Source: Eledone cirrhosa
Taxonomy: Eukaryota
Reading direction: 5' to 3'
Assembly: GCA_964016885.1 (NCBI GenBank)
Contig: OZ024742.1
Span: 162,254,001-162,318,000, forward strand
DNA length: 64,000 nt
Both the position numbers and the translations under genes were made by a program. Shown here piece by piece: positions 2,236 through 51,343 of the stretch. Position 1 is the stretch's first letter, and each line of letters opens with the position of its first letter. The notes under the pieces are model-generated. The model had not been told where the DNA came from and made no database searches. It saw only the letters and a program-made list of their open reading frames with translations.

Positions 2236-3565
2236 ACATGGCTCAGTAGTTAGGGTGTTAGACTCACAATATAAGGCCATAGGTTCGATTCCAAGACATG
2301 GCTCAGTAGTTAGGGTGTTAGACTCACAATATAAGGCCATAGGTTCGATTCCAAGACATGGCTCAGTAGTTAGGGTGTTAGACTCACAATATAAGGCCAT
2401 AGGTTCGATTCCAAGACATGGCTCAGTAGTTAGGGTGTTAGACTCACAATATAAGGCCATAGGTTCGATTCCAAGACATGGCTCAGTAGTTAGGGTGTTA
2501 GACTCACAATATAAGGCCATATGTTCGATTCCAAGACATGGCTCAGTGGTTAGGGTGTTAGACTCACAATATAAGGCCATAGGTTCGATTCCAAGACATG
2601 GCTCAGTAGTTAGGGTGTTAAATTCACAATATAAGGCCATAGGTTCGATTCCAAGACATGGCTCAGTGGTTAGGGTGTTAGACTCACAATATAATGTCAT
2701 AGGTTCGATTCCAAGACATGGCCCAGTAGTTAGGGTGTTAGATTCACAATATAAGGCCATAGGTTCGATTCCAAGACATGGCTCAGTGGTTAGGGTGTTA
2801 GACTCACAATATAAGGCCATAGGTTCGATTCCAAGACATGGCCCAGTAGTTAGGGTGTTAGACTCACAATATAAGGTCATGGGTTCCATTCCAAGACATG
2901 GCCCAGTAGTTAGGGTGTTAGACTCACAATATAAGGCCATAGGTTCGATTCCAAGACATGGCTCAGTAGTTAGGGTGTTAGACTCACAATATAAGGCCAT
3001 AGGTTCGATTCCAAGACATGGCTCAGTAGTTAGGGTGTTACACTCACAATATAAGGCCATATGTTCCATTCCAAGACATGACCCAGTGGTTAGGGTGTTA
3101 GACTCACAATATAAGGTCATGGGTTCCATTCCAAGACATGGCCCAGTAGTTAGGGTGTTAGACTCACAATATAAGGCCATAGGTTCGATTCCAAGACATG
3201 GCTCAGTAGTTAGGGTGTTAGACTCACAATATAAGGCCATAGGTTCGATTCCAAGACATGGCTCAGTAGTTAGGGTGTTACACTCACAATATAAGGCCAT
3301 ATGTTCCATTCCAAGACATGACCCAGTGGTTAGGGTGTTAGGCTCACAATATAAGGCCATAGGTTCGATTCCAAGACATGGCCCAGTGGTTAGGGTATTA
3401 GGCTCACAATATAAGGTCATAGGTTTGATTCCAAGACATGGCCCAGTGGTTAGGGTATTAGACTCACAATATAAGGTCATATGTTCGATTCCAAGACATG
3501 GCCCAGTGGTTAGGGTGTTAGGCTCATAATATAAGGTCATAGGTTCTATTCCAAGACATGGCCCA
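2236..3565 (+). repeat. 60-bp tandem array (22 units plus a partial) of a tRNA-like SINE head
   Basis: Unit acatggctcagtagttagggtgttagactcacaatataaggccataggttcgattccaag carries A-box-like tggctcagtagttag and B-box ggttcgattcc. It aligns with the SINE-B heads at 28116 and 35026, and the array runs into a SINE-B body (tcttgagtaagtcgcttcatttcaca, ~3604-3628). Confidence 0.93.
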
Positions 3566-6351: not shown

Positions 6352-6760
6352 GAGATGACCCCTTAGCCTTTGTCAAGGCAGAATTCTAGGAGAAGGAAAA
6401 CTTTGATATAACACCTGCAACCCTGATGGTATCCAATGATGTTGACTTGTTCTTCTTTTTGGTAAATATCATCTTGGTTAAGAGAGTGGGACTGGCTTTG
6501 TGCAGTGCCTTTGCTCACTATAAAAGCTTCACGGCACAGGCATTGCTTTATATCTGGAGATCTCTCTGCACTTGTCGTCACATGGTACCATGGGCCCAGC
6601 ACTATGTGTCAATAATTGTCACAAGTGTAGTGTTTGTACCAGAGTTTTCATGTCGCAGGCTGGACTAAAAAGTCACACTTGTTCAGCGCATCGGTAGGGG
6701 TTCTCCTACATGGATATAAAGTAGTGGCTGTACTCGAAAACGAGTTGGCAGCCACCATAT
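6352..6760 (+). mobile_element. Non-autonomous RTE-like derivative, 5'-truncated copy
   Basis: Near-identical to 8439-8840, with a remnant C2H2 zinc-finger coding block and an ATGT-rich tail. Confidence 0.75.
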
Positions 6761-7094
6761 GTCTATGTATGTGTGTAGAAAGGCATCTATTTGTCTGTGT
6801 ATATGTATGTGTATGGATATGTGTGTGTGTGTATATTCTTAGGTATATACTAAGGTACTTATGTATACAGACATATACACCTGTATGTATATACTTCAGT
6901 ACATATATATATGCAGATCTATATAATGTATGTATGCAGACATGTGTGCTCATGTATATGTATATGATGTATATACTTATGTACGTATGTGTGCAGGCAT
7001 GTATGCCTCTATGTATATATAATGTATGAATGCGTGTATAACTGAGTGAATGAGTGTATATACATATATATATATATCAGTTCTGTATCAGCGA

Positions 7095-7190
7095 GACATG
7101 GTCACCTGACCTGGCATTGCTCACAATGGGATAACCTGTCTAGCCTGTGCCGGTGTGGAGGAGTGGACGTTGGGCAGAAGTGATGATGTA
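7095..7190 (+). mobile_element. RTE-tail repeat copy with clustered A-to-G changes
   Basis: Homologous to 26921-27018 and to other RTE tails, but reads gaggagt for gaaaaat and ttgggc for ttaaac. Confidence 0.7.
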
Positions 7191-7229
7191 TATGTATATA
7201 TGTATGTGTGTATATGTATATATATATAT

Positions 7230-7356
7230 AGTTTTGGTATAGATGAGATTCTGCAGGACTGGGGCTGTTTCATTCTTGGGGGGTCGTCAGGAATCCTGAT
7301 GATTTCTCGGGAGTGAAGCAGTTCTGGTCCTGTGGGGTCTCGTCTATGTTGGAACT
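7230..7356 (+). other. 62-bp hairpin, fully paired when G-U is allowed (23 wobbles, no mismatches, 3-nt loop)
   Basis: Position i pairs with 14586-i for i=7230..7291; checked base by base. Confidence 0.9.
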
Positions 7357-7971
7357 TTTATACTCTGTTATGTATTGAGTACCTTACATACTGTGCTTAC
7401 CTCCGATTCAACCTGGAATAACTTACCTATATATATATAGGAGGTGAGTTTTATTGTAGCACAATAAAGCAATGCAAATATTGTAAAAGTAGCACTCAAC
7501 AGTTTATAGGACTGGAGTATAAATACTATAAGATCGGGGGATGGTTGGAGGAGTTCCATGTGTTTTGTTGTGTGCATTTCGGGAACAAATGTCATCTCAG
7601 TATTAAAGGCTCTCTCTCTCTCACTCATTTCTCCTCCTACCTTCTTATACTTCTCCTTTATTTCATCCTTTATTTTCTTTCTTCCTCTTCCTTACCTCTC
7701 CTTCCCCCTACCTTCTTTTTTTCCCAATCTCATATATCCATCTTATTTTATTTTTTCATATGTTGATTTAACACTTCACTGCTCGCAAGTGTTTTTTAAA
7801 CTTCATATCATGTCTCCCTATTTTATCTGATGAGAACGCAAGTATCGTCCCATGATGATATTTGTTTTTGGAATGCACATAGTGGGGTGCATGGAGCTCT
7901 TTTGGCCATCTTTTGATCTTGTATTATATGTATGTATGTAAGTATGTATGTATATGTGTGTGTATGTATCT

Positions 7972-8217: not shown

Positions 8218-8845
8218 TCAGGTCACCAGTTGGTGCTACTGGTAACATGTATCCCAGTACAACCCGTCTCATGGTCGGGTCGTTGGCGACTAAACTGGCA
8301 ACCCCACCAAAGTCACCCTCCTCACCAAGAAACCTTGGTGAGGAGGGTGACTTTGGACATCCTGCAGGACTAAAAACAAAACCTGTCAAAGGGCAAAGGA
8401 GCTCTTAAGAGTCAATGGCCATCCAAAATCACCAGGAGAGATGACCCCTTAGCCTTTGTCAAGGCAGAATTCTAGGAGAAGGAAAACTCTGATATAACAC
8501 CTGCAACTCTGATGGTATCCAATGATGTTGACTTGTTCTTCTTTTTGGTAAATATCATCTTGGTTAAGAGAGTGGGACTGGCTTTGTGCAGTGCCTTTGC
8601 TCACTATAAAAGCTTCACGGCACAGGCATTGCTTTGTATCTGGAGATCTCTCTGCACTTGTCATCACATGGTACAATGAGCCCAGCACTATGTGTCAATA
8701 ATTGTCACAAGTGTAGTGTTTGTACCAGAGTTTTCAAGTTGCTGGCTGGACTAAAAAGTCACACTTGTTCAGCGCATCGGTAGGGGTTCTACATGGATAT
8801 AAAGTAGTGGCCGTACTCGAAAACGAGTTGGCAGCCACCATGTGT
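8218..8845 (+). mobile_element. ~620-bp non-autonomous RTE-like element (5'-UTR-like part fused to ORF C-terminus and ATGT tail)
   Basis: Contains a 23-bp perfect hairpin (8307-8356), the UTR-like motif ctaggagaaggaaaactctga and the C-terminal CxxC..F...GL.SH zinc finger. Three copies occur in the window. Confidence 0.65.
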
Positions 8846-11080: not shown

Positions 11081-11790
11081 CAAATAATAATAATAACAAT
11101 AATTCTTTCTAATATTGGGACATGTCCAACAATAGCGGGTGGAGGTGGGGGGGAGAAAGTAGTTTATATCGACACCAGTACTTAACTGGTACAGGGTAGA
11201 GAAGAACCTTAAGTTCTGTCTCTCAATTTCTCTAGTGTTTGTGGCCCAATAAAATGTACCCAGATCATACTGTAAAGTGGTTGGTGATAGAAAAAGCACC
11301 CAGCCAGAAAAACCCTGCCAAAAATTACTATCATCATCATCATGTCCATCCCATGTAAACATGGAAAAAATGTTTTTACCATGACCCTACTATTCAATGA
11401 TGGTAGAGTCAAATGATCCAATCATAGTTCTTATGAAAGAATGAAAGGTTTGAACTGGTGACATAATGGAATATAACTAAATACTGCTATAAAAGACAGA
11501 CAGCTTTAGAAATTTCTATTTCCTCACTTACTTGCTGTATAAATGTGAGATACAGCCATTTTGCAATAAATCAATTTTGGCAACCTGTATTATTAACGGC
11601 CATTCTAAAGGTGTTTCATGAGTATATCTGTGTATTTGTGTATGTGTGTATGTGTTTGTGTGTGTATGTGTGTGTGTGTGTGCGCGTGTGTGTATGTGTG
11701 TCTGCTGGAGTACATGCATTAATCTTATTCATATGTATATATATACATACAAACATACATACATACAAGCATACATACATGCATACATAC

Positions 11791-12012
11791 ATGGTGGCTG
11801 CCAACTCGTTTTCGAGTACGGCCACTACTTTATATCCATGTAGGAGAACCCCCTACTGATACGCTGAACGAGTGTGACTTTTTAGTCCAGCCAGCGACTT
11901 GAAAACTCTGGTACAAACACTACACTTGTGACAATTATTGACACATAGTGCTGGGCTCTTGGTACCATGTGACGACAAGTGCAGAGAGATCTCCAGATAT
12001 AAAGCAATGCCT
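11791..12012 (-). mobile_element. 3' fragment of the non-autonomous RTE-like element (zinc-finger end)
   Basis: Translates CSVCTRVFKSLAGLKSHTRS; inverted copy of 8625-8845. Confidence 0.8.
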
Positions 12013-19355: not shown

Positions 19356-20740
19356 AACTTTGACTTTACAGCTGTTTGTTCTAAAGTGTTTACTAAAACT
19401 CTGTGATTGTGTACTTGTCTGTAATTTAATACAGCCAAAACGGCGCATAATGGGAAAATACTTTGAAAGTAAGTTGCCCCTGAAATGGGAATACAAATAG
19501 AATAAATCAAGTTTTGCGTAAATTGGAGCACGGGTTCCCGAGATATGGGGTTTTTCCGGGTACCTTCATAAATAGAGAGAAAGAAAGATAGAGAAAGAGA
19601 TAGTGGTTGTGAGAGAGTAGATTGAGAGTGTAGCGAACATTTCCTGCTAAATAGGAAGGGTTCCTAAGTGTGTGTGTGTGTGTCTGTGACCAGTGAATAC
19701 AGGTCACAGACACCCATATATATATGTATAGACATGTACACACACACATACACGCACACACACATACATATATATATATGGGCCTTCCAATTTCATTTTA
19801 CATTATATACATGTTTGAGTATATTTCAATTATTTAAAAATTATTTTTAAGTGAACATGATCTTAAAGTGAACGTGACCCAATGGGTCACAGGTGGTCTA
19901 GTATTTATCTAAAAACCTTCCATTATAATTTTATGTAGGAACCTTTGTTAAGTTATGTTCCAAACCATAACTTAATAATTAGAAAGTAACTTATATTACT
20001 AAATCTCTAAATTCTTGATTATTTTCAGTAATATTTAAAACTTATAGGGGTCAATGTCTTTCATTAGAAATATAGTAATAAAAGTTATTTTGGAATCTGT
20101 GTTGAAACAAAAGAAATTCCTAATGAAGAATGTCTGAAATGCTCCACATAAAAACCAATTTAACAGTTAAGATGATAACAATAGCATTGTTTGTTGAAAC
20201 AAATAGTTATGATTGCAATGATAGCTGTATAGCAGTAGACCAATTCCTGTGGCATTGATAAAAAGATATTTGCAGAGTAAATGGTAAAACTTTATAACAA
20301 TGTTTGTTGAAATGAAGACATGACTTTTATTAGTTCTGACAAAACAAATAAACTATTTGATTAGATGTTAACATAGGGGTAATCATATTTCTAACAATAC
20401 TTTCAATATTAGCGGCATTATTTTCTCATTTTACAGACAACAAAACTTCTGTAATTATCTCATGTTTGGTATATGAAACAGATCAGATAGAAGACACTAC
20501 ACACTAACAATTTTGATATATGCTGATATTCAAATTTATTTTACCATATAATCTTTTTATAGAATTATGTTATGTCCTCCTCATTCATCTCCTTGAGGCA
20601 AATTGAAGAAATTATTATTATTATCATCATCATCGCCGAGGTTAACTTTGCCTTTCATCCTTACGGGGGCAATAAAATAAAGTACCAGTAATGTACTGAT
20701 AATTGCTGGCCTTGTGCCTAGAGTAGAAACAATTATTGTT

Positions 20741-21348
20741 ATATATATATTTTTTTCCTCTATTTTCGAACGTGACAAAACTTATCTCTTGAGGTCATTG
20801 GTTGTGACTTGGTGATAACTTATATGAATATAAAGCAAAATAACATGATAATGAAAATAATAATTGTTTCTACTTCAAGCACAAGGCCAACAATTTGGAG
20901 GGGAAGAGAAAATTGATCAAATCGACCCCAGTACTTACTGGTACTTTATTTTATCGACCCTGTAAGGATGAAAGGAAAAGTTAACCTCAGTGGGATTTGA
21001 TAATAATAAGGGCGGTGGATTGGCAGTATCAGTAGAGAGTCGGATACCATGCTTTGCAGTATAGAGTTATGGCCCTTTACTTTCTGAGTTCAAATCCCAC
21101 TGAGGTTAGCTTTTCCTTTCATCCTTACAGGGTTGATAAAATAAAGTACCAGTAAGTACTGGGGTCGATTTGATCAATTTTCTCTTCCCCTTCAAATTGT
21201 TGGCCTTGTGCTTGAAGTAGAAACAATTGTTATTTTTATTATCATGTTATTTTGCTTTATATTCATATAAGTTATCACCAAGTCACAACCAATGACCTCA
21301 AGAGACAAATTTTGTCACGTTCGAAAATAGAAGAAAAAAATATATATA
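20741..21348. repeat. ~260-bp inverted duplication (20741-21000 / 21091-21348) made of a SINE-A body plus ~120 bp of flank
   Basis: Arms are reverse complements with few mismatches. The spacer holds the head of the SINE-A copy at 21009-21232. Confidence 0.92.
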
Positions 21349-21451
21349 TACATATATTTAGATATTTACAATTGTGAAATGAACTTATAACAACAACATT
21401 TTCCTTAGTATATGGACAGTTCCATTAGTATTATCTTTTGTATTTCTTCTA

Positions 21452-23884
21452 TTGATTCTAGGCCATGCTTCCATGTTTGGAATTTCTTCTCTAGTTCGGC
21501 CATTAAACTCCACTGTTATAGCCTGAAGGGTGATAATAAATAGTAGGGGGCTAAGAACGGAGCCCTGATGAACACCAACTTTTACGCTAAACTCTTCACT
21601 ATATTCGTTGTTAATTCTAACCTTGCTGACTGTTTCTTTATACATAGCTTGTATAGCTCTCACAAGCCATTCATCAACACCTAGTTTTCTAAGAGCCCAC
21701 CAGATAATGGAACGGGGGACTCTGTCGAAGGCTTTCTCCAAGTCGACAAAAGCTAAGTATAGGGGTTTACTTTTAGCTAGGTACTTCTCCTGTAGTTGTC
21801 ATAATACAAAAGAGCGTCTGTGGTACTTTTGCCTGACACAAACCCGAACTGCATTTCATCTAGATCAATTCTCTCTCTGATTAGTTGCGCTATTACTTTT
21901 TCTGTGACCTTCATGACCTGGTCGATTAATTTAATGCCTCTATAGTTACTCCTATATAGGGCATCTCCTTTACCCTTGTAGCAGTTAATGATGATGCTGC
22001 TACGCCAGTCCTTCAGAACAACCCCATTCTGTATGACTTGGTTTACTATCGGGGTGACCATGGTGTGTCTCACCATTCCAGAAGCTTTCAGCATTTCAGC
22101 AACTATTTCCGAAGGCCCAGCCACCTTACCCGTCTTCATATCTTTGATTGCCTTACTTATTATACTACCTTCGACTAACACTGCTGGTCCCTCTATTGGG
22201 TCGATGTGGGGAAGACTGTCTTTCTCCCATTTATTCTCCTCATTTAGTAGCCTTTCGTAGTGACACTTCCAAGCTACCTTCTTATCAGCGTCAGTGATGG
22301 CAAGTACACCATCATCATTAAGGACACACTTCTCCCCGACAATATCACGGTTTTCCTTGACACATTGCCTAGCAATCCTGAACACCTCGCGTTTTTGGTC
22401 GTCGCGTTGTAGAACATGCTTGAACTTTCTTTCCTCTGCTTCCCTTCTTGCGAAGTACACTTGTCTCCTAGCTTCCCTCCTGGCCACTTGATAGTCTTCT
22501 CTACTTCCCCCATCCCGCCATACTTTCCAAGCCTGCTTTTTGGCCTTGATTGACCTCTCCACCTTACTGTTCCACCACCAAGTTACTCTCCTCCTGTCTA
22601 TAGGCCTGCTCCACCCACAGGTTTCATCTGTCGCCTTCAGCAGGTTAGCTTTCAGGAATTCCAAATTATGAGTCTATGTTGAGAGGTGCATTCTTCATGG
22701 GGGAGGGATTTAGTGTTTACAACAGACACTCTGTCACGTCTCCTGGTAAGGATATAATCTACCTGGCTTGTGTGTTCCCCCGATCTATAGGTGATCAAGT
22801 GATTGTCTCGTTTTTTGAAGTTAGTGTTACAGATAGTTAGGTTATTTGCGTCACAGAATTCCAGGATTCTGGAGCCTTCCTCATTTCTAGTACCAAACCC
22901 ATAGCCTCCATGGATTCCGTCATAGCCGTCACAATGTTGTCCAACGTGACCATTTAGGTCACCAGCAATAATTATATAGTCACTGTCGGTTATTAGCTTA
23001 TCTGCCCACTTCGCTGCTACCATGATTTCTACTCCACCCAGCCCATTGTCATTTCCCACCCAGAAAAGCTTATAGCATCGTTCTTTACCCACGATGAATC
23101 TAGCAGGCCCACCCCTCCACCTGGTCTCTTGAATACAACAAACATCGACCTCCTTACGTTCAAGCATTTCTACAACCTCGTTAGAGCGACCCTTTAAGGT
23201 GCCTACGTTCATGGTACCAACTCTGAAGTTTGGGATTGCGTTTGTAGGGTGGGAGCGGTGGGGCGCAGGGGAGGGGGGGGGGGGGGGGGGGAGATGGGGT
23301 TATGTTAGCCATCCGCGGCCGAAACAAAGAGGAGGATTCCTTGCATTCTCGTCCATGAGGTGAATTTGTCTTTATCTTTGGCATTGTCACTGAGTGTCCA
23401 GATTTTTTTTCTTTTCAAACTCTCCAGAATTCCGTAGTCCATCCATCATATCGAAAGGCAACCAGGTAAGCGATAGCATAGGCCGCTGACTTATGATTGG
23501 CCCACGTAATAATGGTGATGCGTGAGGGAGGGATATTGGGTAGTTAGCGAGAAGGTTAAGGTTTAAATAAGATCCCCGTATTTTGGGCATAATTTAACAA
23601 GCATAAAACAATAATACAAGATTTGTTTTGAAAAATACGCTAGAATTATCGAATGGAAAAGCAAAGATTGGATTCGGGGAGAAATGATACAGATTGATGA
23701 ATGGACTAGCGAATTAAAATGGTGAGAAGAGTGCAGAAATATTTGTACGTTACATTACACCGTGATAGCAGCCTAGCCTGTCTAGGGTTGGCGATTTTTG
23801 AGGTTCGTATTTGCAGGATTTATTTTATATTTGGAGAGAGAGGAAGGGATTGGTGGCGAACCAGCATGATATAGAGGGGGGTGG
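21452..23884 (-). mobile_element. RTE-clade LINE: 5' UTR, endonuclease and RT up to the WKHGLES region, with internal deletions
   Basis: ORFs give NVGTLKGR..DVCCIQETRW, AGDLNGHVG, QVDYIL, NYRGIKL, QFGF, LEKAFDRV and GVHQGSVLSPLLF. Confidence 0.95.
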
Positions 23885-23898
23885 TATATATATATATT

Positions 23899-25112
23899 TG
23901 AAAATAGGGCACCGGTCCCATCCGGGAAATGGCCATTCTCAGTGTGTAGGAAAGGAGTAGGCAGAAATTCCATTTTATGTCCCAAATGCAAAGTATGGGT
24001 GCATAAAAGATGTAGTGGGATCACAGGTAAGCTAACTAAGAATATAGATTTTATATGTGGCCGGTGCTCTGGTGCAATAAGTAGCAGCAAGTGCCCACAG
24101 AATACTAGCTCATTCCATTGCACAGAAGGTTCTATAAAAATAGTGGACACCTTCCGTTACTTGGGTGACAAAATCAGCAGTGGGGGAGGGTGCTCTGAAA
24201 GTACAGTAGCTAGAGTCAGAACTGGATGGAAAAAGTTCAGAGAGCTTATACCACTATTAGCCGCTAAAGGGTTCTCTCTAAAAATGAAAGGCAGGTTGTA
24301 TGATGCCTGCATACGAACAGCAATGTTACATGGCAGTGAGACCTGGGTATTGTGTGCAGAGGATATACGCAGACTGGAGAGAAACGAAGCTTGCATGCTC
24401 CGCTGGATGTGTAATAGTAATATACGTGAACGGCAAAGCATAAACGAACTAAGGGAAAAATTAGAAATAAGAGGAATCAGATGTTGTTTACTTGAGAGAA
24501 GACTACGTTGGTACGGTCACGTGATGCGCATGAAAGACGACAGCTGTATAAAAAAGTGCAGGGCAATAAAAATAGACGGTAGCCACGGAGTAAGCAGACC
24601 CAGAAAAACCTGGGACGACTTAATAAATTCCGACCTCACACACTTACACCTCTCCAAGACAATGTCACTGGACCGAGACCTTTGGCGGTACACAGTAATA
24701 CAGAAGGCCCGCCTTACCTAAGTACAAAGTGAACCCTACTACAGTCAGTAGGCACCTCTAACAAAAATATACCCCCGTCCCACTACCCCCACCCCATCCA
24801 CACCACCCCTTTCAATGTAAAGTTATGTTGGTACCACAACATCCAGTCCGAAATAAATGAGGTCGTGTAGGTGTCACGACAAAAAAACACACAGTCCACG
24901 CTGTAATGTGGCCGTGTAGGTAACACGGTAAAAACCTCCCAGCCTACACTGTAAACGTGGTTGGTGTTAGGAAGGGCATCCAGCCGTAGAAAACCCGCCA
25001 GACAGTCCTATACGAGCAAGACAACCAATCTTGCCTCAAGTGGGAAAACACCCGTCTAAACCCATGCAAGCGTGGAATATGGACGTTAAACGATGATGAT
25101 GATGATGATGAT
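23899..25112 (+). mobile_element. RTE-clade LINE 3' fragment (PHD-like insert, RT thumb, 3' UTR, (GAT)n tail), fused head-to-head to the preceding element
   Basis: ORF 23942-24721 gives FRYLG, KGRLYDAC..MLHGSETW, RLRWYGHVMR and RPRKTW; ends ttaaacgatgatgatg. Confidence 0.95.
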
Positions 25113-30795: not shown

Positions 30796-33700
30796 AATTT
30801 CTTTATTAGCCAAAAGAAGGGGACAAATACAAATGGGGAGTTTACATACAGGTATATGAAAATAAAACTATTAATAAAATAACAAATAACAATTGATATC
30901 CCCAATAGGGGGGAGGTGTTACACAGGGGTTGTACATACCCCGAAAAAATGTACAACCCTCATCTCCAGGAGCACCAAGAGTGAGTACTCCCTTCCTCTC
31001 TTCCTCTTTTTCCTCAACCTACAGGCTTATAAAGAGAGAAGGCCCAACCACTCGGGCCAGCTTTGCCACATTCACCCACCTTTTATAAAATTTGCTGGGG
31101 TACAGCACCTCTCTCTCTATTCTGATTCTTCTTCCAAAATGATATTTGAAAAAACGAATCAGTTGCTCGCCAGAGAGAAAGGTGTCTGACCTCAGCCCTT
31201 TTAACCTCGTCCACCATATAACCTCTTTCACCATAGCCATAACATATAGGAAAACCGCCTCTCCCTCGTTTTTGAAGGAGGGTGGCAGTTTGATCATGAC
31301 AATGGACTCGGTGGTCAACTGGATTGGTCCCACTCGCGACAATAGTCGTTCTACATAGCCCCACAGGTCGGTAACGCCTGGGCAGTGTACAAATGCGTGC
31401 GCGACGGTTTCCTCGTCGCGCACGCATCTCGGACAGATCTTTTTCGAAGGGTCCCTACCCGGGCACCCGTGTCTGTAGAGCTTGTCTCTAACTGGTAGAG
31501 CTCCTCGGTAGCACTGCCAGGCCAGGGACTTTTGGAAGTTGTCCATTGGTCCCGGGCGGAAGGTCCTACCGAACAGATTGGCCAGTTCGTCCTCCTCTAT
31601 GCCTAGAGCATGTCGTCGCACTTGCTGCGGACCAACCCTCTATAGACTGTCAAAGTGGAGTCTCCACTGATCGCCGGGTCCGTTTGCCAGAGGACTGTGA
31701 GCACCTGAGCACATTCGATGTGCCAGTCGCCCATTTCCTCGGTCTTTGCTTGACCCAGGACTGCAGCTCGGTCAGCGAGACGAGTCGTGGGAAGGCTCGC
31801 CTCACGATCGGGGCTCACACCGGTTGTCTGGTGAGGAATACGTGGAGGTGTCACAGCCTGAGCGCGTGTTTGCGCATCGTCAGCCACGGCATCCCCAGCC
31901 CTCTGTTTGAAGGGTGTTGGCAGCAGATAGATTTTCTCACCAAAGGAGCCCGTTTCTTTCATTTCGGGCATTTTGGTGAGCGTTTTGGCTGGACAAGGCA
32001 CGACAGTCAAGCGGTAGTAGATGATGAACGCTATAAAAGTGTTCGCCACCTCCGCTCGACCTTTCAAGGATAGTTTGCACTCAGCCCACTTCTGGGTGAG
32101 CGCAACACCTTGGCCATCACCTCGTTCCAGTTCTTCTCCACCTGGAGGTTCGGACCAAACCAGACCCCGAGCAGCTTTACCGGTCCTTCCATCCAGCGTC
32201 CGACGACGCCATCGGAAAGCATCGGTTTGCCTCTCCACGTTCCGAGTTGCAAACCGACGGATTTGTCCCGGTTCAGCTTCGCTCCTGTGAACCTTTCGTA
32301 TTCCTCCAGTAAGGTGCCGATCTCCCCGATTTGCGAGGTGCTCGACACTATTACTGTCACGTCGTCGGCGTAGGCCGACGCCACTTTTCGCAGTCCCTGT
32401 TCCAAAGGGATGCCCTGCAATAGCTCCAACTTCCGCAGTAGTGGCTCAAGAGTCAGTACGTACAGAAGGGAGGAGAGAGGGCATCTCTGTCGGATGGATC
32501 GCGTGATATGGAATGGCTCCGAGAGGTAGCCGTTCACCTCGACCCTTGAGCAGATGTTGCTGCTGTGCATTGCAGCAATCCAGTCCCTGAATACGGGTTC
32601 GAAGCCTGCCGCCTCGAGCACCGCATCCAGGTAACGATGGTCAACCTTATCGAAAGCCTTAGACTGATCCAAGTTGATCAGGGCCCCACCGAAGCCGGGT
32701 TTACACCCTACCCTCTCTATGATGTATCGCATGAGGTGGAGGTTGTCGTGTATGGACTTGGTCGGGATTGCGCATGTCTGCGCTTCTCCCACCAGGTTTT
32801 CGACGACAAGCGCCAGCCTCTTTGCCAACACCTTGGCCAAATTCTGTGTTGAACAGAGTTATGGGCCGGAAGTTGCCTATCTCATCCCCCTTGTTCTCGT
32901 CCTTCCTGACTAACGTGATTACGCCCTTGGTCACAGAACTGAGAATTCTCCCGTTCTGCTGCCAGTTGCAGTAGACCGCTTCCAGGAGACCGGACAACAA
33001 GTCCGGCATTGCTACGTAAAATTCATAGGGTAGACCGTCGAGACCTGGAGATTTGCGTTTGCCGCATTGGCTCAGCGCGTCCCCTATCTCAGCGGCCGAA
33101 ATCTGCCTTTTGCAGAACTTCGCCTCACTGTCTGAGAGTCGCGGTAGGCCGTCGAGGTATGAACCGAAATCCATAGCCCCTCCCGGCGCGCCGCCCCTCC
33201 CGAACAGTTGAGCAAAGTGCCGCTGAAAGGCCGCACACATTTGCTTTGGCTCACGTATCACGCGTCCGTCTTGGTCCTTCAAAGACAGAATCGTGGACTT
33301 GTTGTCACTTTTCGCCTCCGTCACTCGGGCCCAGCTAACAGCTTTGGCTCCCTCGTTTCCCCGAGCACGTATTTTGCTTCTGACAACGCAGCCTTCATAC
33401 TTTGCGTCGAAGAATTGGTCCAAGGCCGTTCTCATCGCTAGCACGCTGGCTACGTTGCCACTCCTAAGTGCCTCTTGTACTTTATCTACCAGTTCCTTTT
33501 TGGTCTTATTTCTATCTAACACTAATTCTTTACTAAAACCTATCGAGTCTAATCTAACTGCCCTCTTGAGAGAGTACCACCATCTGTTGTTGACAATGGC
33601 CCCCGTCAAGTGTTGCTTAACTAAAGTGCTAATCCGTCTACTGTAGGCTTTGCATGTCGGTAACGACAAGTTCAGCTTCCAGTAGCCGTGTCCCTGTCTA

Positions 33701-33923
33701 TGGGTTTTGTCAAGGTTGACTAAGCAGGTCACTAATTTGTGATCTGAATAGGCAACCATGAACATTTGTGGACAGCTTAACATGTCCCTATCCTTCTTTC
33801 TAACTAGAACCCTATCTAGGTACGATCTAGATGTTCCGCTGCGATTAGTACACGTCCACAGTGGCACAGTCGGAAAATCTAGTCGATATCTATCGGCCAG
33901 GTCAAATTAGCCGATTAACTGTT
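30796..33923 (-). mobile_element. Tx1/L1-clade LINE, 5'-truncated (EN C-terminus, RT, C-terminal Cys domain), frameshifted
   Basis: SYLDR..SDHKLV, GYWKLN, KSPGLDGLPYEFY, NFRPITL, LDQSKAFDKV, AYADDV and CPRC..ETVAHAFVHC; aataaagaaa tail; 11-bp TSD acaaatagata at 30785-30795 and 33924-33934. Confidence 0.95.
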
Positions 33924-34016
33924 ACAAATAGATAGATAGATATATAGGTAGATAGATAGCTAGATAGATAAATAGATAGTTAGTTAGATAGATAGAAAGA
34001 TAGGTAGATAGATATC

Positions 34017-34548
34017 TTTCTTTATTTGCCACAAGGGCGTACAAAAATGGGACGTTACAAGATGTGACGGTGGGGGTTTTACATAAAAATCTTTAACATT
34101 AATCAATAACAATAAATTATATATAAAATAAAACAATCGAAATCCCCAATAGGGGGAACGTTACTGTGACATTGTTTTACACCCCGTAGCTAGGAAAACC
34201 CTCAACACCAGGAGCACGTTTTGTAGGTGTTCCTGTCTTCTCTCTGTTTGTCTTCCCCAACCTACAGGTTTATATACAGAGAAGGCCCATTCACTTGGGC
34301 CATTTTCGCCCCATTCACCCAACTTTCAGCGAATTTACTGGGGTGTAGCACCTCTTTCTCCACTCTCACCTTCCTTCTGAAGTGGTATTTAAAGAAGGGG
34401 ATGAGTTGTTGTCCGGAGAGGAAGGTGTTTGCACTCAGTCCTTTTAACCGCATCCACCATATTACCTCTTTCGCCATAGCCACCAGACAGAGGAAAACCG
34501 CCTCTTCTTCATTCTTAAATGAAGTCGGTGGAGTGATCCTCACAATGG
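34017..34548 (-). mobile_element. Tx1-like LINE 3' fragment inside (GATA)n
   Basis: ORF 34262-34543 is homologous to the C-terminus of 31019-31621; (GATA)n on both sides. Confidence 0.9.
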
Positions 34549-37389: not shown

Positions 37390-37461
<72 letters not shown>

Positions 37462-39009
37462 AGGTTGGGAAAGGGAGAGCTTACCATCAATCACCTCCTC
37501 TTCATGGACGATCTTAAGCTCTTCGGGAAGAGTGAGAAGGAGTTGGATGTGCTTGTTGACACTGTCCGTATTTTCAGCAATGATATATGTATGCAATTTG
37601 GTATTAGTAAGTGTGGAGTCCTTGTGATGAAGAGGGGTAGATTGAGCAGAAGTAACGGAATGCAGGTGCCAACAGGTGAGATGATAAAGGAAATTGACAC
37701 TGAAGAAGGATACAAGTGTTTGGGTGTTCTGGAGGCTGATGACATCGGGAACAAAAAAATGAAGGAATTGATAAGAACTGAATACATTCGGAGAGTGGAG
37801 AGCGTATTGGGGTCACATCAGAACAGTAGGAATGCCATAAGTGCAGTAAATTCCCGAGCTGTGTCTATTATTAGATACAGTGCGGGAATTCTGAGATGGA
37901 ATGTTGCTGAACAAAAAGAAATGGATAGAAAGACTAGGAAGCTAATGACTATCTACAACATCTTCCACAGGAGGAATGATGTCGATAGACTCTACTTAAG
38001 GAGATCTGAAGGTGGAAGAGGTCTTATCAGCATAGAGGACTGTGTTCAGATGGAGAAAAACAACCTACACAAATACGTGACTGCTCGGAACTGTACTGAA
38101 GGAGAGGACAATGGACCAGGGGATGTCCAGGGGGGAAATAACAACAAGGAGAAAGAGCAGCCTTCATGAAAAATCCCTTCATAGTACCTTCTTTGAGAAA
38201 ACTGAATTCAGAGATCCACAGACATGGAACTGGTTGAAAGGAGGAGACCTTAAAAAGGCTGCAGAGGGGGTGTTAATGGCTGCGCAGGAGCAGGCCCTCA
38301 AAACGAAGTGGTTGAAACACCATATTTACAAGGAGGAGGCTAGCCCACTGTGCAGGATCTTTGGAGAGAGAGAGAGGAGACTGTGGCTCACATTGTATCC
38401 GAGTGTAAACACCTAGCCCAGACTCACTATAAGAGCTGGAGACATGATGTGATGGGCGATGGAGACATGATGTGATCCACTGGCACCTATGTGGAGTGGG
38501 CAATTTACCACATTCTGAGAAGTGGTATGAGCATAAGCCAGAGTCGGTGATAGAAAACGATCAGGTGAAGGTGCTGTGGGATTTTAGGATACAGACGGAC
38601 AAGAAACTGGAACACAATAGACCTGACCTGGTGGTTTTGGACAAAGAAAAAAGATCGTGCCTGATTATGGATGTGGCCTGCCCATTCGAAACGAGAGTGC
38701 AAGAGAAGGAGAGGGAGAAAATTAACCGATACCAGGACTTAAAGTGGGAGGTAAGGAGGATTTGGAACTGCCATGAGGTCAAAGTGGTACCGATTGTCAT
38801 AGGCGCACTAGGGACTATCTCAAAAAGTTTCCAGGGATGGTTAAAGAAAATTGGCCCCTTCACGCTTTTTGGAACGCTTCAAAAGGCATGCTTGCTGGGA
38901 ACAGCAAGAACCCTCCGATACGTCCTGAATATCTGAGGCTGCAAGTAGTGGCTTGATATTCATTTCAACAAACTTTCCAGTTAACTAACATCAACGACAG
39001 AGACTCAAA

Positions 39010-39046
<37 letters not shown>
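37462..39046 (+). mobile_element. R4/Dong-like RLE LINE, 5'-truncated, embedded in (AAT)n
   Basis: HLLFMDDLKLF, RLYL.R..GGRGL, RHD..IHWHL, RPDLVV..DVACP, KINRYQDL, VVPIVIGALG and LQKACLLGTA; (AAT)n on both sides. Confidence 0.92.
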
Positions 39047-39047
<1 letters not shown>

Positions 39048-40440
39048 CTTTCTTTATTAACCACAAGGGTTTACATAAAGTAGACATTAAGGACAGTACA
39101 GGACAACACAGGACGGTACAAATGGGCATTTCTGCGTGTAAAAAAAAACAGAAGATGTAATAAAAAAATAACAATGAAAAATTCCCCAATAGGGGGGAGA
39201 CTTCCGAGGGACATTTGTGGAGAAAGCCCACTAAAAGGCCACAGTGACCCGGACCACCAGGGCAAGTGCCCTCTCCCAGTTTTCCACCTTTAATTTACAG
39301 ACACATACTCAGAGTAGGCCCATTCACTCGGGCCATACTTGCTTCTCTCACCAATCTTTCAACAAAATGCTGGGAAGAGAGCACTTCCCTCTCTACCCTG
39401 ATTTTCCTTTTCAAATGAAATTTGAAAAAGTTAATCAGGGCATCACCGAAGAGGTAAGTGCTCGTCTTCAGCCCTTTCAAACGTGTCCACCATACTATCT
39501 CTTTCGCCATGGCCACCAGACAGATAAAAACTGCCTGCTCTTCCCGGCTAAAGGAAGAGGGCGGGGCACCTCCATGCCTGTAGAGTTTATCCCGAACTGG
39601 CAAAGCTCCTCGGTAGCACTGCCAGGCCAGGGATTTCTGGAAGTTGTCCATAGGCCCCGGCCCGAAAGTCCTTCCTAAGAGATTGGCTAGTTGATTTTCG
39701 TCGACGCCTAGAGTTTCTCCAAGTACGTCGTCGATCTTCCCCTCCACTAATCCTCTATAGAACGCCGAGGTGGAGTTTCCACCGATCACATTGCCCGATT
39801 GGTCGAGGGCTGTGAGCGCCTGAAGACATTCCAGTCTCCAAGCGCTCCCTCTCGGTCTTCGCTTGACCCAGGACTGCAGCTCCATCAAGGAGACGAGCTG
39901 GGGAAAGACGTGTCTAGCAAACGGCGACCACACCTGATCACCGTCGAGGAAGAGGTGGAGATGTCGTAGCCTGAGCGCGTGTCTGCGCATCATCAGCCAC
40001 GGCATGCCCAGTCCTCCACGTAGCGGGTGTTAACAGCAGATAGATCGCCTGACCATCGGAGCGCGTCCCTTCCACAAAAAGCGAAAGAGCAAACGCTCCA
40101 GCGCAGTCAGGCGGGGCTTAGGACAAGGTACGACGGTCAGGCGGTAGTAGATGACGGACGCGATGTACGCGTTAGCCACCTCCGCTCGACCTTTCAGGGA
40201 TAGCTTCCTCTCCGCCCATTTCTGGGTGAGAGAAGCCACCCTGCTCGTCACCTCGTCCCAGTTTTAGTCCGTCTGGAGGTCCGGACCGAACCAGACCCCT
40301 AACAATTTAACTGGTCCGTCCGTCCAGCGCCCGACGACGCTGTTGGACGGCATGGACCTGCCTCTCCAGGTGCCGAGCTGCAGGCCCACTGACTTTTCCT
40401 GTCACCGCTTCGTATTCTCTTAGTGTAGTGCCGATCGCCT
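39047..40440 (-). mobile_element. Tx1-like LINE 3' fragment, tail abutting (AAT)n
   Basis: LSLKGRAEVAN, SLAWQCYRGALPVRDKL; aataaagaaa tail. Confidence 0.9.
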
Positions 40441-40835
40441 CGAGAAAACGCACATGGTGGATATATATCGTTATGGAATCGGTCCCGTAAGTTTTTGATT
40501 TTTACTTCTTTAAAACAACTGTGATAGAATAATTCTTATTACAAATGAACAATAAGATTACAGTTTTCACGTTCAGCAAGCCATAACGCATCACTTTACG
40601 GCATAGGGCCCCAATATTTAATATTTAATTTTGGATCAGAAATGTTATAGTCGAAAATGAGGAAAATGGCAAAATGGCTAAATAGCTAAATAGTTAAATG
40701 GTTAAGTGGACAGGCAGAAAATTAATTTCACCACCAACACCACAACCACTACCACGCTAAAAACTCTAGTCAAGTTACCTCAACTTCTATTTCTACTTCA
40801 ACTTCAACACCATCACTACAGTACTACGATCACAT

Positions 40836-40982
40836 CACCACCACCACTGCCTCATTATCGCTACCGCCGGTATTCTCTCCCACTACCTCCTGCTAAGTAC
40901 TACTAGCACAGCACCACCACCACCACCACCACTGCTTCATTATCACTACCGCCGCTATTCTCTCCCACTACCTCCTGCTAAG
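40836..40982. repeat. ~60-bp direct duplication (offset ~85 bp)
   Basis: caccaccaccactgc.tcattatc.ctaccgcc..tattctctcccactacctcctgctaag occurs twice. Confidence 0.85.
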
Positions 40983-41282
40983 ACATGCATCGTAGTCCCC
41001 ACTAAAAGAGGAAGGCATCAATATATATAAATAGACTGATTTGATGACCCGGTCAAAAAATAAAAATAAAACAAAAATCAAAATCAAAGCAGCACAGCAA
41101 CAACGAAAAACGTAAAGAAAAGAAAAATGAAAAGAAAAACAAACAGACAGACAGAGAAGGGAAGGGAAAAACTAAGTCAGACATTCAAACATTACATTAC
41201 AATGAAACTTATGCTTATGCTTATTCTTTTTTTTTTTTTTTTTTTTTTACCTATTTGTTTGTTTGTTTATTTATGTTCGTCT

Positions 41283-44200
41283 AAAATCACCGGGAGTGAT
41301 GAAATCACCGGTGGTTATGTAACCATACATTCACCAATCCTCGATAAGAGTGTTTAAATGTCAAACCTAAACAGTTCGAATAACGGTGAAGTGGAGACTA
41401 GAATGTCATGTGACAGACTCTCACCCAGCAGGTGCTCCCTGGCTCAGCAACGGGGACCTGGCTGTCAACCAAATACTGCTGGTGTCGGAGGAAGAAGAAG
41501 AAGGAAAGGGACCAGAACCAACTGGACGAAAGACTTGAATGTTACCTGAAGAGTAACCCCAAGGAGAAAGGCTATAGGAAACGGATGCATAACATCTGGA
41601 ACGAGATTGGTCTATTTAAATTAGATGAACAAAAATTGGCCGGGCAGGCTCGGGTAATAAGAACTAATGGGTGGATAAGCGAGCTGGAACTGGAGGAACT
41701 GAGCAGAGAGATTAGGTTGGAAATGGAGAGTGGAGTATGCCAGGCAAACGAGCCAGTGGGAAATGAAGGTGAAGAGGTTGAGAGAACGGAGGAACCATCC
41801 GAAGCAGATAATGATCTGAATGCTGAAATAAATAATACCTGGAACAAAGATACGGCCATTGAGGAGGTGAATGCTGACGGGCTAGGACAAGATTTGGTTG
41901 ATATCCTAAACTTAGTGGTAGATGAATCGAACAATAATAGTGGGAGACCTATGAACCTAAGATTTGTAGACAGGAAAAAGTTAAAAGAAACAACAGCTAA
42001 GGTAAACAAAGTCATCCCATACCTTGAGGCGAGGAGCCTTCACCAGTGCAACAATATCGTCAAAGCAACAGCAAATGCGGTGAGGAAATTACTTGGTATA
42101 AAAGCGAGAGGAAACAACAAACAAGAAAGATCAGAGCCTTGGTGGAAGAAACGACTGAATGGTCAAATCAGGGAAATGAGAAATGACATTGGAAAGCTTG
42201 AGTCCCTACTGAATGGGACACTAAAAAACATAGACACTAAAAATAGACTGGAAATAAAGTACAAAACTAGGAGGAAAAAGATAAATATTATCATAGAGGA
42301 ACTGAAGCAGCGCATTGTAGCAAAGAGTGCAAAAATTAGGCGATACGAGAGCAGAGTCAGTCAGTATAGACATAACCGCATGTGTGACAACAACCAGAAG
42401 ATGCTGTTTAGACAGCTTGAAGGGAAACAAAGAGGCAACGACTTGATCCCTGAGGCGGAAAAAACTAAGACATTCTGGAGAGGAATATGGGAGCAGGATG
42501 TTAAACATAATGACCAGGCAGTGTGGATTGAGACAGTACAAAAGGAGATTAGTGAACAGGCACACCAACAAACTGATTTGAGTATCACAGTTGAAACTCT
42601 TAAGGGACAGGCCAAAAAACTAACCAACTGGAAATCACCAGGCCCAGATGGTGTGCAGGAGTATTGGATTAAAAATATAACATCCCTCCACCCGAAACTG
42701 ACAACCATGTTCAATGACTGGTTGATGTCAGGTGAGGTACAAGAGTGGTTGACAAAAGGTACCACAGTTCTGGTAATGAAAGGCCGAATCAAGGGTAATG
42801 ATGTTACCAACTATAGACCTATCACATGTCTGTCCGTAATGTGGAAACTGTTGACAAGCATTATGTCTGAGGAAATCTACCATCACCTCCACACAAACAA
42901 CTTGTTACCGGACGAACAGAAAGGATGCCGAAAGAAGTCCCGTGGTACAAAGGACCAGTTACTTATTGATAAGATGGTAATGTGGAATTGCAAGAGGAGA
43001 CACACTGGTCTTGCCATGGGATGGATAGACTACAAAAAGGCATTTGACATGGTGCCTCATTCTTGGATCACCAAAAGCCTAGAGATCTTCAAGGTGGCAG
43101 ATAACATCAGACAGATGTTGGGCAAAAGTATGAAGTCCTGGAAAACAGAGTTAACATCAGCTGGAGAATCCTTGGATGGCGTGAAGATCAAGAGAGGTAT
43201 CTTCCAGGGAGATAGTCTGTCCCCTCTATTGTTTGTCCTTGCCCTGATGCGCCTGACCATTATACTGCACAAAGTGAGAGCAGGATACAAATTGGGAAAC
43301 GGAGAGCTTACCATCAATCACCTCCTCTTCATGGACGATCTTAAGCTCTTCGGAAAGAGTGAGAAGGAGTTGGATGTGCTTGTTGACACTGTCCGTATTT
43401 TCAGCAATGATATATGTATGCAATTTGGTATTAGTAAGTGTGATGAAGAGGGGTAAATTGAGCAGAAGCAACGGAATCCAGGTACCAACAGGTGAGATGA
43501 TAAAGGAAATTGAGACTGAAGAAGGATACAAGTATTTGGGTGTTCTGGAGGCTGATGACATCAAGAACAAAAAAATGAAGGAATTGATAAGATCTGAATA
43601 CATTTGGAGAGTAAGGAGCGTATTAAAGTCACATCTGAACAGTAGGAATGCCATAAGTGCAGTAAATTCCCGAGCTGTGTCTATTATTAGGTACAGTGCG
43701 GGAATTCTGAGATGGAATGTTGCCGAACAAAAAGAAATGAATAGGAAGACTAGGAAGCTATTGACTATCTACAACATGTTCCACAAGAGGAGTGATGTCG
43801 ATAGACTCTACTTAAGGAGATCTGAAGGTGGAAGAAGTTTTATCAGCATAGAGGACTGCGTTCAGATGGAGAAAAACAACCTACACAAATACGTGACTGA
43901 TAGTAAGGAGCCAATGCTCAGAACTGTACTGAAGGAGAGGGCAATAGACCACGGGGATGTCCAAGGAGGAAATAACAACAAGGAGAAAGAGCAGCCTTCA
44001 TGAAAAATCCCTTCATAGTACCTTCTTTGAGAAAACTGAATTCAGAGATCCACAGACATGGAACTGGTTGAAAAGAGGAGACCTTAAAAAGGCTACAGAA
44101 GGAATGTTAATGGTTGCGCAAGAGCTGGCCCTCAAAACGAAGTGGTTGAAACACCATATTTACAAGGAGGAGGCTAGCCCACTGTGCAGGATCTGTGGAG

Positions 44201-44860
44201 AGAGAGAGGAGACTGTGGCTCACATTGTATCCGAGTGTAAACACCTAGCCCAGACCCACTATAAGGGCTGGAGACATGATGTGATGGGCAGGGTGATCCA
44301 CTGGCACCTATGAAAAGTAAACAATTTACCACATTCTGAGAAGTGGTATGAGCATAAGCCAGAGGCGGTGATAGAAAACGATCAGGTGAAGGTGCTGTGG
44401 GATTTTAGGATACAGACGGACAAGAAACTGGAACACAGACCTGACCTGGTGGTTTTGGACAAAGAAAAAAGATCGTGCCTGGTTGTGGATGAGGCCCTCC
44501 CATTCGACACGAGAGTGCAAGAGAAAGAGATGGAGAAAATTAACCGATACCAGGACTTAAAGTGGGAGGTAAAAAGGATTTGGAACTGCCATGAAGTCAA
44601 AGTGGTCCCGATTGTCATAGGCGCACTAGGTACTATCTCAAAAAGTTTCCAGGGATGGTTAAAGAAAATTGGCCCTTCACGCTTTTTGGAACGCTTCAAA
44701 AGGCATGCTTGCTGGGAACAGCAAGAACCCTCCGATACATCCTGAATATCTGAGGCTGCAGGTAGTGGCTTGATATTCATTTCAACAAACTTTCCAGTTA
44801 ACTAACATCAATGACTGAGACTCAAAGTACAATAACAATAATAATAATAATAATAATAAT
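41283..44860 (+). mobile_element. R4/Dong-like RLE LINE, near full length, several frameshifts
   Basis: ATG at 41358, NWTKDLN/ECY..S.P..GYRKRM N-terminus, RT motifs (NYRPITCL, EQKGC, IDYKKAFD, GIFQGDSLSPLLF, FMDD), CCHC (CRIC..ETVAHIVSEC), PD..D nuclease and (AAT)n tail. The 5' boundary is approximate. Confidence 0.93.
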
Positions 44861-47800: not shown

Positions 47801-48480
47801 CGTGGGTCACTTTGACCCTCACAATCTTCTGCCTGCAGTAGGAGAGCACCAAAACTACCCCGTCACTCTTTATGGTTACCAAAGAGTGAGAGTTCACCTC
47901 TTGTTGGGTGGAAAAAAGTACGTCCGCGGTGGCATACTTTTTGCCTTGGGTGATGTGGGTTTTGTGTGCCCACACGCACCCCAAGGCTTTTTGAATTCAA
48001 GCCTCTGTGGCTCTCTCCATCTAATGTGATCTTTTGCTTACAGTGCGGTAAGTCACCGCCCGCAAGTGTTAGTCCTTGAAAAAATTGGGTGGAGGTTTCA
48101 GGGAGACTCGATTGGCTTTGCTAGCCACCATGGCCCTTGCGATCGCCATCTCCTCCTCCGTGACTATCACTGTCTCTACATTTATGGTCACCCCTCGCAA
48201 AAGAAATGGTCTCTCTTTTTAGTGGCACCATTGTTGCTGCCGCTACTGCTGCTACTGGTCTTGTTGTTGGTGCTGTTGCTGCTGCAACTGCTATACTGGT
48301 GTGGTTGTTGCTTCTGCCGCTGCTGCTACTTTCCTTGTTGCCGTTAGTGCTGGTTTTGGTAGCAGTATCTCCACAGTCATGTGCTGCTATAGCAAGGGCA
48401 CTGGCACTGCCAGTGCCAGTCTCATAAACACCTTCCTTCTTGCCAAATGTATCTCCAGCAGCCGCTTCTCGACCACCACT
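44861..48480 (-). mobile_element. Tx1-like LINE with ORF1 (zinc-knuckle-like), EN domain, RT deleted, C-terminus and 3' tail
   Basis: ORF1 46902-47984 (VEGRRPKFYLCRSKGHLSAFC); EN SVNVRGL..ISETR, AIYAP, SYLDRI; C-terminal CPRC..ETVMHTLVQC. The 5' boundary is uncertain. Confidence 0.85.
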
Positions 48481-49316: not shown

Positions 49317-49694
49317 AGCAGCACCGTCACAACTAGCACCGTTACAACTAGCAACTCTTCTGAAACCTATATAGGCTCTACTTCAAACTGCTTCAAAACC
49401 AGATACAATTCGCACATCCATTCTTTAAAAAAACACAGTCTAGCCAACTCCACTTCACTATCTAGCTACATACACTATTTAAAAACTAAAAATAGATCTT
49501 ATACACTTAAATGGGAAGTGATAGGTAAGGCGACATCGTACAAACCACCTAATAAATGTTGTAACCTCTGTCTACTAGAGACCCATACTATTATCTTCTC
49601 AAACCATAACCTCCTTAATAAAAAATCAGAAGTGTTCGCGTCATGCCAGCACCGCTTCCAACACTCCTTCCAAAACTTTAAACCCAATATATAG
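49317..49694 (+). pseudogene. Penelope-type GIY-YIG endonuclease C-terminal half (no start codon, absent from ORF track)
   Basis: My translation: ETYIGSTSNCFKTRYNSH...STSLSSYIHYLK...LKWEVIGKATSY..PNKCCNLCLLETHTI...LLNKKSEVFASCQHR...NI*. Confidence 0.9.
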
Positions 49695-51293: not shown

Positions 51294-51343
51294 TTGCTCC
51301 GAAGGATCCAAACCTCGGTTTGGACGAAACAATTGTAAGCTAA
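51294..51343 (+). ncRNA. Atypical minimal hammerhead-ribozyme-like motif (mirror copy on the minus strand at ~48695-48744)
   Basis: gct-CCGAAGGA-tccaaac ctcg gtttgga-CGAAAC-aatt-GTA-agc: 7-bp stem II, palindromic stem III loop, short stem I. The core deviates from CUGANGA. Confidence 0.55.

Follow-up and report, generated by a model that had tools for sequence, protein, structure and literature searches.

A probable DNA copy of an ADAR-hyper-edited fold-back retroelement RNA in the genome of Eledone cirrhosa

ADAR edits that have become part of DNA are known from retroviruses. They have been described in proviruses for an inverted repeat of avian leukosis virus (Hajjar and Linial, 1995), with "nearly 50%" of its adenosines edited, and for the U3 region of Rous-associated virus (Felder, 1994), both reviewed in PMC12925331, and short clusters of such edits occur in the proviral DNA of the bovine leukemia virus 3' LTR (PMC8025556). 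Another host deaminase, APOBEC, edits the DNA of LTR retrotransposons (Knisbacher and Levanon, PMC4866542; Zaranek et al., PMC2873906); its footprint was reported absent from 19 invertebrates, in a screen that selected for G-to-A changes and whose main text does not use the word ADAR (PMC4866542). At the RNA level, hyper-editing of metazoan repeats is strongest in Octopus bimaculoides, and has been seen also in Penelope elements of a lizard and in a palindromic Harbinger element of a frog (Porath et al., PMC5625713). In all the metazoa tested there, G was depleted 5' of the edited sites, and the invertebrates showed a trend to A on the 3' side (PMC5625713). It is debated whether the A-to-G excess found at edited sites reflects selection, tolerance or a direct mechanism (PMC10209271). 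Regarding the possible carriers, Penelope-like elements are described with partial tandems and an adjacent inverted truncated copy, and target microsatellites (PMC8557442); they carry type I hammerheads in their pseudo-LTRs, and the G10.1–C11.1 pair that closes helix II is conserved in hammerheads (PMC4209133). Non-LTR retrozymes have been proposed as non-autonomous derivatives of these elements (bioRxiv 10.64898/2026.07.22.740005).

The window analyzed in this work is a stretch of 64,000 nucleotides from Eledone cirrhosa, and it contains a 694-nt insert (7230–7923) placed between TA/TG microsatellites. We consider it very probable that this insert is a DNA copy of a fold-back retroelement RNA that had been hyper-edited by ADAR. 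It begins with a hairpin (stem 1) of 62 consecutive pairs, running from 7230/7356 to 7291/7295 with no mismatch and no bulge, of which 39 are Watson-Crick and 23 are G-U; our recount is identical to that of an earlier first-pass annotation, made from the sequence alone. The left arm (7230–7291, + strand, with 11 wobble G and 10 unchanged A) is an inverted copy of a hammerhead-bearing segment, while the right arm (7295–7356, + strand, with 12 wobble G and 9 unchanged A) is this segment in the element's sense. Between them there is a loop of 3 nt, AAT (7292–7294, + strand), a small self-complementary site that was probably the fold-back (snap-back) point. The + strand folds at -90.8 kcal/mol (z -15.4, a value reached in 0 of 200 shuffles), the - strand at only -34.2 kcal/mol, and Markov resamples never exceeded a gapless stem of 18 bp, the longest value in 1000 resamples of the hairpin, with 300 of the whole insert also tried. 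As controls we took 16 of the 25 inverted repeats listed in the window, whose non-Watson-Crick pairs were 87 G-T, 91 A-C, and 102 of transversion type. The all-G-U pattern of stem 1 is far outside neutral decay, because mismatches in the controls split among G-T, A-C, and others, and the chance of obtaining 23 G-T out of 23 from this split is ~2e-12. The extreme asymmetry that the first-pass annotation had pointed out is borne out by these figures.

That annotation had described stem 1 correctly and overlooked both the Penelope-type layout of the same insert (see below) and a second stem, located on the same strand 170 nt downstream. Stem 2 pairs 7527–7596 with 7923–7854 over 70 bp, 45 Watson-Crick and 25 G-U, and closes a loop of 257 nt. 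Its left arm (7527–7596, + strand, 14 wobble G and 15 unchanged A) terminates at an inversion breakpoint, and its right arm (7854–7923, + strand, 11 wobble G and 13 unchanged A) is the inverted duplicate of the left one. The loop (7597–7853, - strand) is an inverted continuation of the same family, bridged by contigs over 7786–7881, 7758–7870, and 7822–7927. Just inside this loop, two positions (7842 and 7847, both CpG) are G>A relative to the family, either near-stem edits or ordinary variants. Strand polarity is identical for both hairpins, and the insert is bounded on each side by the outer end of one of them. When the window was masked for low complexity and scanned with scoring, allowing arms up to 12 kb apart, 87 stems were found on the + strand and 71 on the - strand, and a G-U share of 0.36–0.37 was seen only in stems 1 and 2, all the others having 0.19 or less.

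The direction of the changes was assessed with other copies of the family. Within the 64-kb window no close copy of the hairpin arms was found, either by blastn or by an alignment with A and G collapsed. Of eight public sequencing runs listed, five contain part of the stretch and none is on record as RNA, a fact without bearing on expression; the comparison used four of them (X1, X2, X4, and X5) at 80% likeness, X1 and X2 coming from one sample and X4 from another. The contigs that fit the stretch numbered 4267 in X1, 4636 in X2, 343 in X4, and 53 in X5, and in X1 and X2 the summed depth, which is not a copy number, went up to about a million. These contigs show that the repeat family to which the insert belongs is very abundant. 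In X5 (with another organism label, share 0.04) the family is present, with 7537–7608 left without cover, a gap that we do not read as absence. Among the 40 listed of 133 difference rows, 18 of the 19 inside the stems are G>A (G in the insert, A in the other copies), each of them at a wobble G, vs 2 of 21 outside (p = 6e-8). On the right arms these rows fall at 7326, 7334, 7336, 7348, 7351, and 7352 (stem 1) and at 7871, 7882, 7884–7887, 7889, and 7896 (stem 2). Counting the difference rows together with loose ends and inter-joint letters, which were compared by eye, the other copies have the A-T state at 43 of the 48 wobble pairs (20 of 23 for stem 1, 23 of 25 for stem 2) and G-C at 0 of 48, a call having been made for 43; the five pairs outside are 7244/7342, 7261/7325, 7286/7300, 7550/7900, and 7591/7859. 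For ten of the stem 1 calls the main basis is one X2 contig, which has a depth of 13.7 and is confirmed in part by two others.

Since the other copies read A-T, and never G-C, at the called wobble pairs, the wobbles arose by A-to-G on the + strand, the four arms having 11, 12, 14, and 11 such sites. In the comparison with paralogues proposed in the first-pass annotation, the copies carry A where the insert has a wobble G, and T opposite it, at these called pairs. In the runs X1, X2, and X4 there are also 16–21 T>C places per run, mostly with no assigned position, which we count against an edited retrocopy. The opposite direction, a strand-specific C-to-T change of a DNA palindrome (APOBEC-like, by methyl-CpG decay, or RIP-like), was another of the options in that annotation. 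Read as C-to-T, the changed sites are weakly enriched before G, that is at CpG (17/22, p = 0.026), but at all of the 43 called pairs the other copies have A opposite T where the insert has its wobble, with no G-C, and this refutes the option as it was first stated and leaves it extremely improbable in any of these forms.

With the A-to-G direction, 23 of 42 original A-T pairs changed in stem 1 and 25 of 53 in stem 2, that is 51% of the paired adenosines overall. The changes are confined to the duplex, in both arms of both stems, and they show a neighbor preference. Adenosines after U or A were changed in 38 of 58 cases vs 10 of 37 after C or G (p = 0.0003), only 5 of 20 adenosines after G were changed (p = 0.012), and of those followed by A the fraction was 21 of 33 (p = 0.085). 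The depletion of 5' G, for which the first-pass annotation had suggested looking, is therefore present, together with a preference for U and A. Direction, strand, confinement to the duplex and neighbor bias all point to ADAR as the probable enzyme. Apart from the wobbles the arms lack any difference at 264 sites, which means a later divergence below ~1.1%. This suggests that the editing took place in a single, recent burst, and that the insertion is young, because the arms show no non-wobble difference at these 264 sites.

One alternative keeps the deamination and moves it to DNA, either in place or during copying, through ADAR acting on a DNA:RNA hybrid or through a different adenosine deaminase that attacked a DNA hairpin in its extruded form. 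ADARs do edit the DNA strand of DNA:RNA hybrids in model substrates (PMC12925331). However, a hybrid would expose the whole element, and the G>A rows are concentrated in the stems as described above; moreover, both arms were changed on one strand only, as expected of an intramolecular RNA duplex. We regard this alternative as very unlikely. About equally small is the probability that we assign to a selected hairpin RNA of the siRNA-precursor type, also among the options of the first-pass annotation, in which the G-U pairs would have gathered slowly under selection for pairing. The + strand fold is indeed still strong (-89.5 kcal/mol as it is vs -103.3 with all pairs Watson-Crick), and a later use of the hairpin as a silencing RNA against the family may be conceived. 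Nevertheless, slow drift predicts C-to-T wobbles, bulges, and compensatory changes, while 0 of 43 called wobbles come from G-C, every one derives from a single substitution type, the arms are otherwise identical, and the ADAR neighbor bias is not predicted. Diversity-generating-retroelement mutagenesis does not restrict A to G as outcome, and this type of mechanism was rejected because here A changes only to G. Of the explanations given in the first-pass annotation, the one that gains from the A-T state of the copies (43/48) and from the neighbor depletion is ADAR hyper-editing followed by retro-copying.

It is also necessary to consider whether the G state exists in DNA reads. A single X1 contig of depth 4.27 is an exact match over 97 nt (7543–7639), spanning ten wobble G and the breakpoint 7596/7597. 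The size of X1 and X2, whose kind is not on record, and the depth profile of X1 suggest whole-genome DNA, and their sample may be the one that was assembled. At other sites the support is thin or absent: for 7334, 7885, and 7886 there is no listed depth without A in X1 or X2, all the X1 and X2 contigs compared reading A at the last two, and at 7348 the depth without A is 3.8, in X2 only. Read confirmation of the kind called for in the first-pass annotation is therefore partial, with an exact match over 7543–7639 and thin or absent support at 7334, 7348, 7885, and 7886. A contig of depth 3.2–3.6 in X1 and X2 has non-A at 7882, 7884, 7887, and 7889 and A at 7885 and 7886, and the joint from 7596 to 7851 is listed at the same depth as this 7851–7889 contig with its different A/G pattern (X1, X2); it may come from another edited copy or from an allele, or be an effect of the alignment. 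The picture in X4 is different. Where the left arm of stem 2 is edited, its depth is 0.32–0.37 of the neighboring depth, vs 0.0009 or less in X1/X2, and A and non-A are mixed at many wobble sites of 7527–7596 and 7871–7896, for instance with 61% non-A at 7896 vs 0.3% in X1/X2. This is a hint that X4, the kind of which is not on record either, could be an RNA library with live editing of the family.

These observations bear on an assembly artefact, in which the hairpins of the genome would be perfect and the G bases would have been introduced when reads of edited RNA served to polish the assembly or to close gaps. In X4 the arms of stem 2 occur in many versions with G at part of the sites, which means that RNA-like sequence of this sort exists, and the lack of supporting depth in X1/X2 for the wobble G at 7334, 7885, and 7886, in runs whose kinds are not on record, would be in line with it. 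On the other hand, the exact X1 contig joins its ten wobble G to a locus-specific breakpoint at a low depth, like that of a single locus, and gaps in support are expected at a depth of ~4. Overall, we find an artefact unlikely to a marked degree, and favor an edited RNA that was copied into the genome.

The layout of the insert is that of a Penelope-type repeat. Its left flank is a TA/TG microsatellite (7187–7229), the likely target site, and the right flank is again microsatellite sequence (TA/TATG, 7924–7969). Behind the inverted piece that forms the left arm of stem 1, the blocks follow each other as unit 3' end, (TA)6, 5' part of the next unit and inverted continuation. The unpaired 3' tail of the repeat unit (7357–7427, + strand), which other copies leave into (CA)n/(TA)n behind ~7413, holds at 7372 an 11-mer in common with a fold-back at 63080–63285. 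The internal (TA)6 (7428–7439), with loose ends at 7428 and 7439, separates one unit's 3' end from the 5' part of the unit that follows, as in a partial tandem, and other copies join the insert sequence at 7428–7439 from (TA)n. Next is the unpaired 5' part of the following unit (7440–7526, + strand), covered by family contigs, where GTGAGT at 7444 is what we take to be a splice-donor-like word, a candidate by motif; no splice joint was found among the joints shown in the run contigs. In the insert we found no open reading frame for a reverse transcriptase or a GIY-YIG endonuclease, the latter defining Penelope-like elements together with the former. The open frames at 7440–7598 on the + strand and 7768–7923 on the - strand (53 and 51 aa) belong to no Pfam family, and the first of them had no homolog among longer proteins. 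The insert would be at most a non-coding Penelope-type end piece or a non-autonomous derivative, and we hold the Penelope nature of the carrier somewhat less firmly than the copying of an edited RNA. As for the TA/TG microsatellites of the window, the idea that they are themselves editing fossils was not supported, 11 of 16 mixed tracts having TG and CA on one strand.

Within the right arm of stem 1 there is a type I hammerhead-like motif (7296–7339, + strand), with a CUGAUGA box (7296–7302) and a GAA box (7315–7317). Helix III has 4 bp (7318–7321/7330–7333) and a loop of 8 nt, the cleavage position is 7334, and the 3' strand of helix I is 7335–7339. The complement of the left arm keeps a helix I of 5 bp (GAUUC/GAAUC), and the loose-end letters of other copies suggest a compensated helix I, with low agreement (0.44–0.52). 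The insert has G at hammerhead positions 15.1 (7318) and 17 (7334), where both the partner base and the other copies give A; once these two are read as A, the core boxes CUGAnGA and GAAA and the NUH triplet are present. The first-pass annotation had recognized the boxes and had argued that a hammerhead core favors A-to-G at 7318, which agrees with these data, while its triplet GTC (7327–7329) gives way to a better one at 7332–7334. We call the motif only hammerhead-like because the pair 10.1–11.1 is U.U (7303/7314, with three pairs inside it) and Rfam had no hammerhead match: nothing in the window reached the gathering score, and at E ≤ 10 the edited sequence gave 10 weak below-threshold miRNA/RUF21 matches. 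By the general rules for hammerheads, G at 15.1 and 17 would abolish cleavage, so this copy should not self-cleave. A metagenome pattern scan gave two matches of 21 nt with dissimilar flanks, which were taken as chance.

Putting this together, the parent would have been a copy of an abundant, hammerhead-bearing, microsatellite-targeting Penelope-type repeat, with a partial tandem and two inverted duplications, a layout that is seen directly in the insert, and with two hairpins of 62 and 70 bp that were presumably perfect. Its transcription on the element-sense (+) strand would have exposed both hairpins to ADAR; about one in two paired adenosines, on all four arms, would have become inosine, with the unpaired parts almost untouched. 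The edited RNA would then have been reverse-transcribed in one piece, each inosine being taken for G, and the product would have entered a TA microsatellite, probably with the help in trans of a reverse transcriptase of Penelope type (the insert has no enzyme gene), and the copy would have passed through the germline. Most likely, the locus is now a dead copy without function.

Several other features were found in the window. The segment 63080–63285 contains a fold-back of 59 bp, in which 58 pairs are Watson-Crick and the register shifts once; behind it lie a GAAA box, the 11-mer and a (TA)n end. The fold-back (63080–63203) and the insert have this exact 11-mer in common (2 matches vs 0.01 expected), and a helix III-like pairing was seen by eye at the GAAA box. 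Its sequence suggests a related family of Penelope type, of which this would be the 3' end, probably truncated before the CUGA box. With 58 Watson-Crick pairs, one A-C and no G-U it is unedited, and by analogy it would illustrate the starting state of the hairpins of the insert. An inverted repeat of 106 nt (103 Watson-Crick) at 1566–1929 adjoins a TA/CA microsatellite, possibly another unedited fold-back insertion. At 20731–21359, the common SINE-like repeat of the window forms an inverted repeat of 270 nt, 96% complementary with a spacer of 89 nt, whose mismatches (5 G-T, 3 A-C, and 4 others) show no G-U excess in DNA, and which is likely an ADAR substrate if transcribed. There is also a tandem array of ~22 copies of a 60-nt unit (2236–3555), with one frame open on each strand and a unit that we take to be tRNA-derived from its looks, and a near-perfect inverted repeat of 561 nt with a spacer of 1613 nt (48652–51386), which is a young element, either a fold-back or similar to a DNA transposon. 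Several reverse-transcriptase frames of LINE type, decayed and from different families, occupy 21500–25100, 31000–34500, 37400–47900, and 55900–60900, and some of them are mutually inverted. A LINE-type frame in the neighborhood gave 95 hits, among which the only one assigned to a named animal was from Octopus vulgaris (58% identity), a weak sign, along with the style of the repeats, of an octopus host. The insert itself is flanked by a near-identical direct duplication of ~400 nt (6360–6780 and 8440–8840), a dispersed repeat with an inverted copy near 11730–12012.

If the insert was formed in this way, the change of half of the paired adenosines at once, with the bias of ADAR, would be a footprint left directly by the route through reverse transcription, and the hairpins would show that ADAR was active in cells whose DNA is passed on. 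APOBEC-edited retroelements would also gain a counterpart made by ADAR, in animals that were reported to lack genomic footprints of editing. A broader idea, to which we lean rather less than halfway, is that ADAR-edited retrocopies are a recurring and overlooked inherited class in octopus-like genomes, in which Penelope-type elements make their own fold-backs, these are hyper-edited in the germline, loosened and deprived of their hammerhead activity, and the RNA consequently stays whole and is copied, in bursts of edits. The hints that we count for it are the low-depth X1/X2 contig with another G pattern over 7882–7889 and the mixed-G contigs of X4. If true, A-to-I edits would enter the genome in bursts, and standard repeat annotation would miss the edited copies because their identity to the family is below ~80%. 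A cheap genome-wide test follows, by scanning for stems with G-U as the only deviation, or by aligning repeats with A and G collapsed. In open-licence PubMed Central and bioRxiv we found no report of germline, non-viral ADAR-edited retrocopies, a point for which the supplementary text about invertebrates of PMC4866542 may be relevant.

Compared with the known systems, the insert is similar to Penelope-like elements in having a partial tandem and an adjacent inverted truncated piece, flanked by two inversions, and in its bias for microsatellites, evident in both flanks and in the loose ends into (CA)n/(TA)n (PMC8557442). Its motif resembles the hammerheads described for these elements and for retrozymes in being of type I and near the 3' end of the unit (PMC4209133, PMC8557442, bioRxiv 10.64898/2026.07.22.740005), and differs from them in its helix III of 4 bp with an 8-nt loop, neither minimal nor palindromic, and in the U.U at 10.1–11.1. 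Unlike non-LTR retrozymes, it has one hammerhead-like motif and an inverted copy of it, with no tandem complete units. With APOBEC-edited retroelements it has in common a burst of a single substitution type caused by a host deaminase in a copy that stays in the genome (PMC4866542, PMC2873906), although APOBEC acts through the cDNA, gives G-to-A on the sense strand and needs no duplex (PMC4866542), whereas the changes here are A-to-G, confined to the duplex and apparently made at the RNA level. The hyper-edited metazoan repeats of Porath et al. belong to the same class of fold-back substrates, with the same 5' G depletion and a 3' A trend toward which the insert leans only at p = 0.085, but their edits were seen in RNA against unedited DNA, while here they are in the DNA sequence itself (PMC5625713). 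There is also a likeness to the proviruses of avian leukosis virus, Rous-associated virus, and bovine leukemia virus, with A-to-G clusters in a fold-back, about half of the A changed and fixation in DNA by reverse transcription; the changed fractions (23/42 and 25/53) are close to the value given for the avian leukosis virus inverted repeat (PMC12925331). Those proviruses are vertebrate viruses and their cases somatic or from cell culture, while the insert would be a non-viral and non-coding retroelement of an invertebrate, presumably in the germline, in which a single RNA had both of its hairpins edited. The chemistry as such has precedents in retroviruses.
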